Positions 27,759 through 28,110 of a stretch of 64,000 nt of DNA are shown here, in pieces; within the stretch, counting starts at the first letter, position 1, and the number at the start of each line of letters is the position of its first letter. The translations under genes and the position numbers were made by a program. The notes beneath the pieces were generated by a model that worked only from the letters and a program-made list of their open reading frames with translations, made no database searches and had not been told where the DNA came from. Source of the DNA: Eledone cirrhosa (Eukaryota); assembly GCA_964016885.1 (NCBI GenBank), contig OZ024741.1, forward strand, positions 4,340,001 to 4,404,000, given 5' to 3'.

Positions 27759-28044
27759 TGTGGGTATGGTGTGGCGTGCGGTGGCCGGGGGGGGGGGGGG
27801 GGGGGGGTTGCTCAACCGGAAGGGGTTTTTGAGTGCTCGACCGGAAGGGTCTTTGACCGGAAGCATGCTCGACCGGAAGGGCCAGGAGTGGGCCTCTCTC
27901 TAGTGGTGACCAGCATACGGTGAGGACGCGTTTTGGGCAGCTCCCGGTGTTAAGCAGTCGGACGCACGTGGAAGAGGAGTACCTGCAGTCGAATTTAGCG
28001 GCGCCTGTGAAAAGCTGTAAGTGAGATGGCTTTTTCTAACCACA
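27759..28044 (+). repeat. 5' LTR of Gypsy-like element (286 bp)
   Basis: Direct repeat of 31711-31972 with one extra ACCGGAAG unit and a poly-G run. Confidence 0.93.
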
Positions 28045-28110
28045 AGCTATCTCGGCGACTGAAAAAAAAAAAAAAATAAATAAACCACTTGCCGCAAAAC
28101 AAATCAGAAG

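Follow-up and report, generated by a model that had tools for sequence, protein, structure and literature searches.

A candidate primer site complementary to the 5′ end of tRNA-Phe in a widespread clade of animal LTR retrotransposons

Primers of the closest described elements

A plant-wide survey recognizes three types of primer among LTR retrotransposons: a whole tRNA, a tRNA half cut in the anticodon stem, and a self-primer (PMC6317226). The site of a whole-tRNA primer pairs with the CCA 3′ end of the tRNA; mouse IAP primes in this canonical way with tRNA-Phe (PMC7472051). Kojima described 3′-end primers in animal Gypsy and Ajax elements and, for fungal Copia and Helenus, primers from the anticodon loop (PMC10886601). 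Priming by tRNA halves is known from Drosophila copia, yeast Ty5, Osser, Bryco, Bianca, fungal Copia and Helenus; the available text of the two papers concerned reports such sites for Copia-type elements only (PMC10886601, PMC6317226), and that of the plant-wide survey finds tRNA halves in Copia lineages only (PMC6317226). Self-priming is described for Tf1, Tf2 and Tj1 and for the Tf1/sushi chromoviruses (PMC4600332, PMC6317226), and the RNase H of Tf1 cleaves an RNA duplex, according to a title cited in PMC4600332. Ty1 and Ty3 inherit their primer site without recopying it from the tRNA, as summarized in the available part of a review (PMC7472051).

The window analysed here is a stretch of 64,000 nucleotides from Eledone cirrhosa (contig OZ024741.1, positions 4,340,001 to 4,404,000). 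It contains an LTR retrotransposon whose candidate primer site shares features with each of these systems, as far as their available descriptions go. As in canonical 3′-end priming, the site lies directly 3′ of the 5′ LTR and the partner is a host tRNA, which is tRNA-Phe as for IAP; the site pairs, however, with the opposite end of the tRNA. As in Ty1/Copia tRNA-half priming, the site has no TGG and the primer would be a 3′-truncated host tRNA. The analogy is loose: Copia sites pair with the anticodon arm (of iMet, Ile, Tyr or Asp tRNA) and copia-type primers end in that arm, whereas here the partner is nucleotides 1–12 of tRNA-Phe, a far shorter piece, and the primer would end in the D-stem. 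The integrase precedes the RT in Copia, whereas the order here is protease, RT, RNase H, integrase. Tf1 uses a self-primer of 11 nt. The likeness to Tf1-type elements lies in the lack of a TGG and in a primer made of the first 11–12 nt of an RNA, cut at the edge of an RNA–RNA duplex; the donor is the element's own transcript in Tf1, whereas here it would be a host tRNA acting in trans, no chromodomain hit was obtained, and complementarity to the LTR is not conserved.

Other invertebrate LTR elements have the same Gypsy-like order. The mollusc Gypsy clades MolGy1–16 were named in a survey whose main text, in its available part, mentions no PBS, primer or tRNA (PMC6238403), and the clade of the window element may be one of them. 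Saci2 and lennie also belong here (PMC12471100), but Saci2 is set apart by its description, with a 4-bp target-site duplication and a fused Gag-Pol where the window element has 5 bp and overlapping gag and pol frames. The atypical primer sites of Culex elements, as presented in the available text of PMC3286476, are something else. A recent metazoan survey searched for the last 12 nt of tRNAs only, according to its available text (PMC13524379), and elements with a site for the other end would therefore count there as lacking a primer site. No description of a site matching the first 12 nt of a tRNA was found in the literature searched, a scope outside which lie Repbase, subscription journals and supplements, and a literature search with the motifs themselves returned no paper on retrotransposon primer sites, judged by title and start of abstract. 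Priming by a 5′-terminal piece of tRNA-Phe is probably real, clade-wide and undescribed. A 5′-terminal tRNA piece of 10–12 nt would be a fourth primer type beside the three listed in the available part of the plant-wide survey (PMC6317226) and, if confirmed, the first truncated-tRNA primer outside Copia within the literature examined. Very short 5′ tRNA fragments would then gain a defined function, and elements primed in this way would fall outside 3′ tRNA-fragment silencing, which acts via canonical sites.

The Eledone cirrhosa element and its junction

The element measures 4.2 kb, lies on the forward strand at 27759–31972, and is inserted in a 49-bp satellite, which breaks off at 27756 and restarts at 31973. 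Both LTRs (27759–28044 and 31711–31972) have TG...CA ends; the left target-site copy, GGATT (27754–27758), lies in the satellite and matches the right copy, GGACT (31973–31977), at 4 of 5 positions. A gag ORF of 253 aa with a zinc knuckle (28111–28872) overlaps an open pol frame of 961 aa from stop to stop (28812–31697), which is in −1 relative to gag and encodes, in this order, protease, RT, DUF7047, RNase H and integrase, as read from Pfam hits most of which are below Pfam's cut-off. No chromodomain was hit in pol after the integrase at E ≤ 0.01, a threshold that a diverged domain could escape. The polypurine tract (31702–31710) follows a GATC and is immediately 5′ of the 3′ LTR. The −1 overlap contains, in the gag register, G GGA AAC at 28821–28827, which we take to be a classic slippery heptamer. 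The satellite is present in about 566 copies at 1–27756, 10 at 31973–32442 and 174 at 39606–48154, and a non-LTR retrotransposon whose endonuclease and RT lie in two frames (33111–35983, reverse strand) neighbours the LTR element.

The first-pass annotation of the window, made from the sequence alone, called the element Gypsy-like. The name holds as far as the domain order goes. The element has the features of Ty3/Gypsy in that protease, RT, RNase H and integrase follow a zinc-knuckle gag, the LTRs are of the TG...CA type, and there are a polypurine tract and a 5-bp target-site duplication. The fold predicted for the RT-RNase H (29241–30680) is confident (pLDDT 92.6). The best structural matches listed are the RTs of CaMV (TM 0.70) and HIV-1, at 14–17% identity, with caulimoviruses again in the viral library; identity to any listed structural match is 11–20%, the closest by TM-score being a caulimovirus RT. 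The RT of Ty3 is not among the 50 structural matches listed nor among the 60 sequence matches listed. On this predicted fold, the RT-RNase H is deeply diverged, and "Gypsy-like" refers to the domain order only. DUF7047, which marks the clade, is named in no paper found by the literature search.

The element belongs to a large and young family. The genome contains 1,147 junction candidates, of which 40 were scored, and an RT search gives 1,234 candidates, of which 150 were scored and are 91–99% identical. The LTR pairs of sister copies differ by 1–5 substitutions, those of the window copy by 8 substitutions, one 25-base indel and one 1-base indel (read from the alignment). The target-site duplication is 5 bp in all nine sisters with both ends located, out of 12 fetched. 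The window element is a young member of a clade of LTR retrotransposons that is widespread in animals.

The 5′ LTR ends in CCACA at 28044 and is followed at 28045–28056 by AGCTATCTCGGC, which contains no TGG, exactly as the annotation had read it. This candidate primer site adjoins the CA of the LTR and is the complement of nucleotides 1–12 of tRNA-Phe(GAA), with 11 of 12 positions matching in the window copy. The annotation had compared the site with the 5′ end of metazoan tRNA-Phe, and the E. cirrhosa genome's own tRNA-Phe(GAA) starts in the same way. The 11/12 match that it noted is present in the window copy but is not typical of the family: it results from a private change, the sisters matching at 12 of 12. 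Indeed, the CA is followed by AGCTATTTCGGC, the exact complement of tRNA-Phe nucleotides 1–12, in 27 of 29 sisters selected by likeness of their junction, and the other two have one other substitution each. As a control, 20 further copies were selected by RT match alone: the LTR end was found in 15, of which 14 have the exact 12/12 site and one a single change. The alignment of junctions across family members thus keeps the tRNA match in nearly all sisters. TGG directly after the LTR occurs in 0 of the 29 junction-matched and 0 of the 15 RT-anchored sisters, which disposes of the idea that the window copy is a mutated version of an ordinary TGG site.

With A, C or T as the next base, the 15-nt junction has 343 matches in the genome, in several families, against 1 for the reversed control; the version of the window copy is found once in the whole genome (3 Gb), which rules it out as typical of the family. 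The first 30 of the 343 matches include two loci, L153 and L159, in which the LTR ends are unrelated and gag is only 47–55% identical, and the site is kept. The genome carries essentially one variant of the site: three loci with other variants (L131–L133) were discarded as satellite or unrelated DNA without gag or pol hits. Eight derivatives that are internally deleted or apparently non-coding (L150, L153, L160, L163, L167, L169, L171 and L319) also keep the exact primer site; four of them (L160, L167, L169 and L171) have no gag or pol hit within 1.5 kb behind it.

The partner is abundant in the same genome. A 25-nt tRNA-Phe motif is found, with at most one mismatch, at 297 places (0 for the reversed control), and ARAGORN calls tRNA-Phe(GAA) in 5 of the 5 loci scanned. 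Among 52 distinct own tRNA genes, a partial set of mostly 5 isotypes obtained from an Rfam tRNA search that scored 63 candidates, position 1 of tRNA-Phe is the only 12/12 match to the primer site; the next best match is 9/12, and the best match to a tRNA 3′ end in this partial set is 8/12. The duplex with tRNA-Phe is predicted at −18.7 kcal/mol for the main family and −15.0 kcal/mol for the window copy. Some of the tRNA-Phe genes stand in a tandem array with tRNA-Asn, with a period near 1.26 kb (L034–L042, at 117.36–117.50 Mb of G000:C4).

The site in distant relatives

Protein searches gave 763 and 441 relatives; those with a name belong to cephalopods, gastropods, crustaceans, a bryozoan, Hydra, Trichuris, Trichinella and an acanthocephalan. 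The animal-wide spread of the lineage (molluscs, crustaceans, bryozoans, cnidarians, nematodes and acanthocephalans) is thus given by protein names. Matches in a protein atlas fall in unnamed eukaryotic RT clusters only, and a search of viral contigs gave 13 pattern hits, of which 0 were confirmed as relatives. A metagenome scan provided 71 further loci, 25–62% identical in the RT-RNase H, in which no tRNA genes were found.

CA|AGCTA-N4-GGC is present on the gene strand in 42 of these 71 loci and on the opposite strand in none, the chance expectation for its 10 fixed bases being 0.26 in the 269,932 bases examined. The motif was defined after the junctions had been viewed, which makes its fixed positions necessarily invariant; the test therefore bears on position, strand and count. 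The 42 loci form 24–27 DNA clusters (families), with one variant per cluster. The CA is the end of the LTR in the distant loci in which both LTRs are available (L062, L071 and L079). The sequence flanking the sites is unrelated and all four letters occur after GGC; conservation therefore stops exactly at nucleotide 1 of the tRNA. Among the 29 loci without the motif, two have a gag start and upstream DNA (on our reading) and carry a damaged form of the site, with one mismatch in L055 and a partial site in L078; the remaining 27 are uninformative on this point. In most distant families (L043–L113) the first ATG comes 0–26 nt after the primer site, which then abuts the likely start of gag.

The N4 segment faces nucleotides 4–7 of the tRNA, in the acceptor stem, while the fixed bases face nucleotides 1–3 and 8–12. 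Six variants occur among the 42 loci: TCTA (14), TTTC (12), TCGC (9), TCCC (4), TCAC (2) and ACAC (1). Four of them, accounting for 37 loci, are exact complements of the 5′ ends of ARAGORN-called tRNA-Phe(GAA) genes among 145 public loci; no partner was found for TCCC and ACAC (5 loci) among these 145 tRNA-Phe-like loci. Of 128 possible variants of the pattern, 18 were Phe in the public loci, and 3 of the 5 non-seed variants match (p ~0.02). Judged by these sequence matches, the variants are real tRNA-Phe starts; a match to their own hosts is not implied, the tRNA-Phe genes coming from unrelated public records, many of them archaeal.

The variants are scattered over a quick tree of the RT-RNase H, which has 59 rows, omits 13 loci and lacks support for 24 of its 55 inner branches. 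TCGC (L075) nests among TTTC elements, and TCCC occurs in L047, which stands beside the window element, as well as in the distant L057–L059; these two lineages come from contigs with neighbouring assembly numbers. This scatter and the single variant of the E. cirrhosa genome fit a site that follows the tRNA of the host rather than the element.

Priming and its alternatives

The annotation had proposed that the element primes either by self-priming or with a tRNA 5′ fragment. The second option is well supported, with 12/12 matches in the sisters, the site in 24–27 distant families and variation confined to acceptor-stem positions, and the first is not. Minus-strand DNA synthesis is probably primed by a 5′ piece of tRNA-Phe of 10–12 nt, as suggested by the sequences compared. 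In the proposed sequence of events, the packaged RNA would be tRNA-Phe or one of its 5′ fragments, and the 5′ strand of the acceptor and D-stems would anneal to the site. Cutting or trimming of the tRNA at the edge of the duplex, after U12, would then leave a 3′-OH at the LTR boundary, from which the RT would extend the fragment into minus-strand strong-stop DNA. It speaks against this model that a 12-nt 5′ fragment must be freed from the folded tRNA; priming of this kind would point to a cut in the D-stem. If the AG after CA were a spacer trimmed by the integrase, the primer would measure 10 nt instead of 12. Selection would keep the site matched to the tRNA-Phe of each host, provided that inheritance without recopying from the tRNA, as in Ty1 and Ty3, applies here.

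If a tRNA is the primer, the first guess for the cutting enzyme, made by analogy, is the element's own RNase H, which stands at about an even chance; a host nuclease is the second guess and falls somewhat short of that. A broader scenario is put forward tentatively, at rather less than even confidence: an old, animal-wide LTR lineage would capture the 5′ strand of tRNA-Phe and cut it after nucleotide 12 with its own RNase H. This would be the counterpart in trans of what Tf1 does when it primes itself, and might connect self-priming with priming by tRNA; the site would change together with the tRNA-Phe of each host, base for base.

It is unlikely that the primer is another host RNA ending in the same 12 bases at its 3′ end, such as a different tRNA fragment, a SINE or a small RNA. 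The comparison covered tRNAs only, and a partial set of them, the TCCC and ACAC variants have no Phe partner, and tRNA-Lys and tRNA-Thr share the GCC...TAGCT frame, so that some families may use the 5′ end of another isotype. Against this, conservation ends precisely where the tRNA begins, the site is a 12/12 match to a high-copy tRNA-Phe of the same genome, and four variants all correspond to Phe starts. Ty1 and Ty3 are known to bind their tRNA in a bipartite manner, and the site could similarly serve to dock or package the 5′ strand of an intact tRNA-Phe, with priming from another 3′-OH (that of a protein primer, or of the same tRNA's 3′ end bound at a different place); the ATG that closely follows the site in many distant families would also be compatible with a role in translation control. 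Such a docking role is very unlikely to be the explanation, as no TGG stands at the junction in any copy read and the site holds the sole position where initiation defines the LTR edge, according to the established mechanism (available text of PMC10886601).

The self-priming option came from a stem across the LTR boundary. The LTR sequences on which it was based are in place, GAGATGGCTT at 28023 in the 5′ LTR and GAGATAGCTT at 31951 in the 3′ LTR; the 11-nt loop was correct, while the stem folds to 11 bp instead of the 10 bp given (−14.2 kcal/mol for the local fold of 28015–28062). The LTR arm (28022–28032) can pair with the first 9–10 bases of the primer site, and in a Tf1-like reaction this duplex would be cut to form the primer. 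Of 10 own-genome junctions tested, 7 have a pairing of 10–11 bp that lies 12–14 nt before the junction (p 0.010–0.063 versus shuffles), and most changes in the arm exchange A and G, so that pairing persists through G-U. However, G-U-tolerant pairing above chance is found in none of 34 dereplicated distant junctions, scanned up to 250 nt upstream (longer LTRs were covered in part, and 8 loci were dropped as duplicates or too short); with Watson–Crick pairs only, one of the 34 reaches p 0.043. The hairpin is also absent from L153 and L159 of the same genome, and all these loci keep the site. The related own families that have the hairpin count as one evolutionary event. In the main family the invariant GGC has no pairing partner in the arm, and the predicted energy of the hairpin is −8.7 kcal/mol versus −18.7 for the tRNA duplex. 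With an 11-nt loop, the strong-stop DNA would, we infer, measure no more than about 12 nt. Self-priming of this kind is highly improbable for the window element and, given its absence from the 34 distant junctions, L153 and L159, the unpaired GGC and the weaker fold, cannot be the mechanism of the clade on the junctions compared. The two changes private to the window copy, at 28028 in the LTR arm and at 28051 in the primer site, are not opposite each other in the stem, so that a compensatory change is rejected.

The hairpin would instead be a later structure, specific to a subgroup, which likely gates the primer site or a neighbouring splice donor. It is directly preceded by GTAAGT (28017–28022), a predicted donor-like motif kept in most own-genome families shown, including those with unrelated LTR ends (L153 and L159), and an acceptor-like tract precedes the gag ATG in several own families. 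GT(A/G)AG 24–29 nt before the LTR end is combined with a pyrimidine tract and CAG before the gag ATG in the window element (28100–28110 for the latter), L151, L153, L157, L159 and L043. An mRNA spliced at this predicted intron would lack both the LTR end and the primer site; the choice to splice, or access to the site, may be under the control of the hairpin. The donor-like GTAAGT that own families have close to the LTR end could also suggest that a splice junction inside the LTR makes a self-primer. The probability of this is next to negligible: none of 44 junctions can assemble the primer from an exon end before GT or GC and a start after AG, up to 250 nt upstream, and this possibility was rejected.

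Minor signals of the transcript

The annotation saw no AATAAA inside the LTR, and the 5′ LTR (27759–28044) contains neither this signal nor 11 common variants of it; a TATA is not found in the same interval either. The AATAAA of the leader, at 28075/28079, falls in an A run (28062–28076) whose length differs among copies, and is found in the leader of 3 of 29 sisters; it was rejected as a poly(A) signal and regarded as noise. AATAAA lies within 150 nt of the LTR end in only 10 of 37 distant loci. At the other end of the element, the GATC immediately 5′ of the purine tract (31696–31710 in the window) is kept clade-wide and mirrors the palindromic AGCT that starts the primer site; GATC and a purine run before TGT occur in 18 distant loci (20 pattern hits, of which two are not like a polypurine tract).
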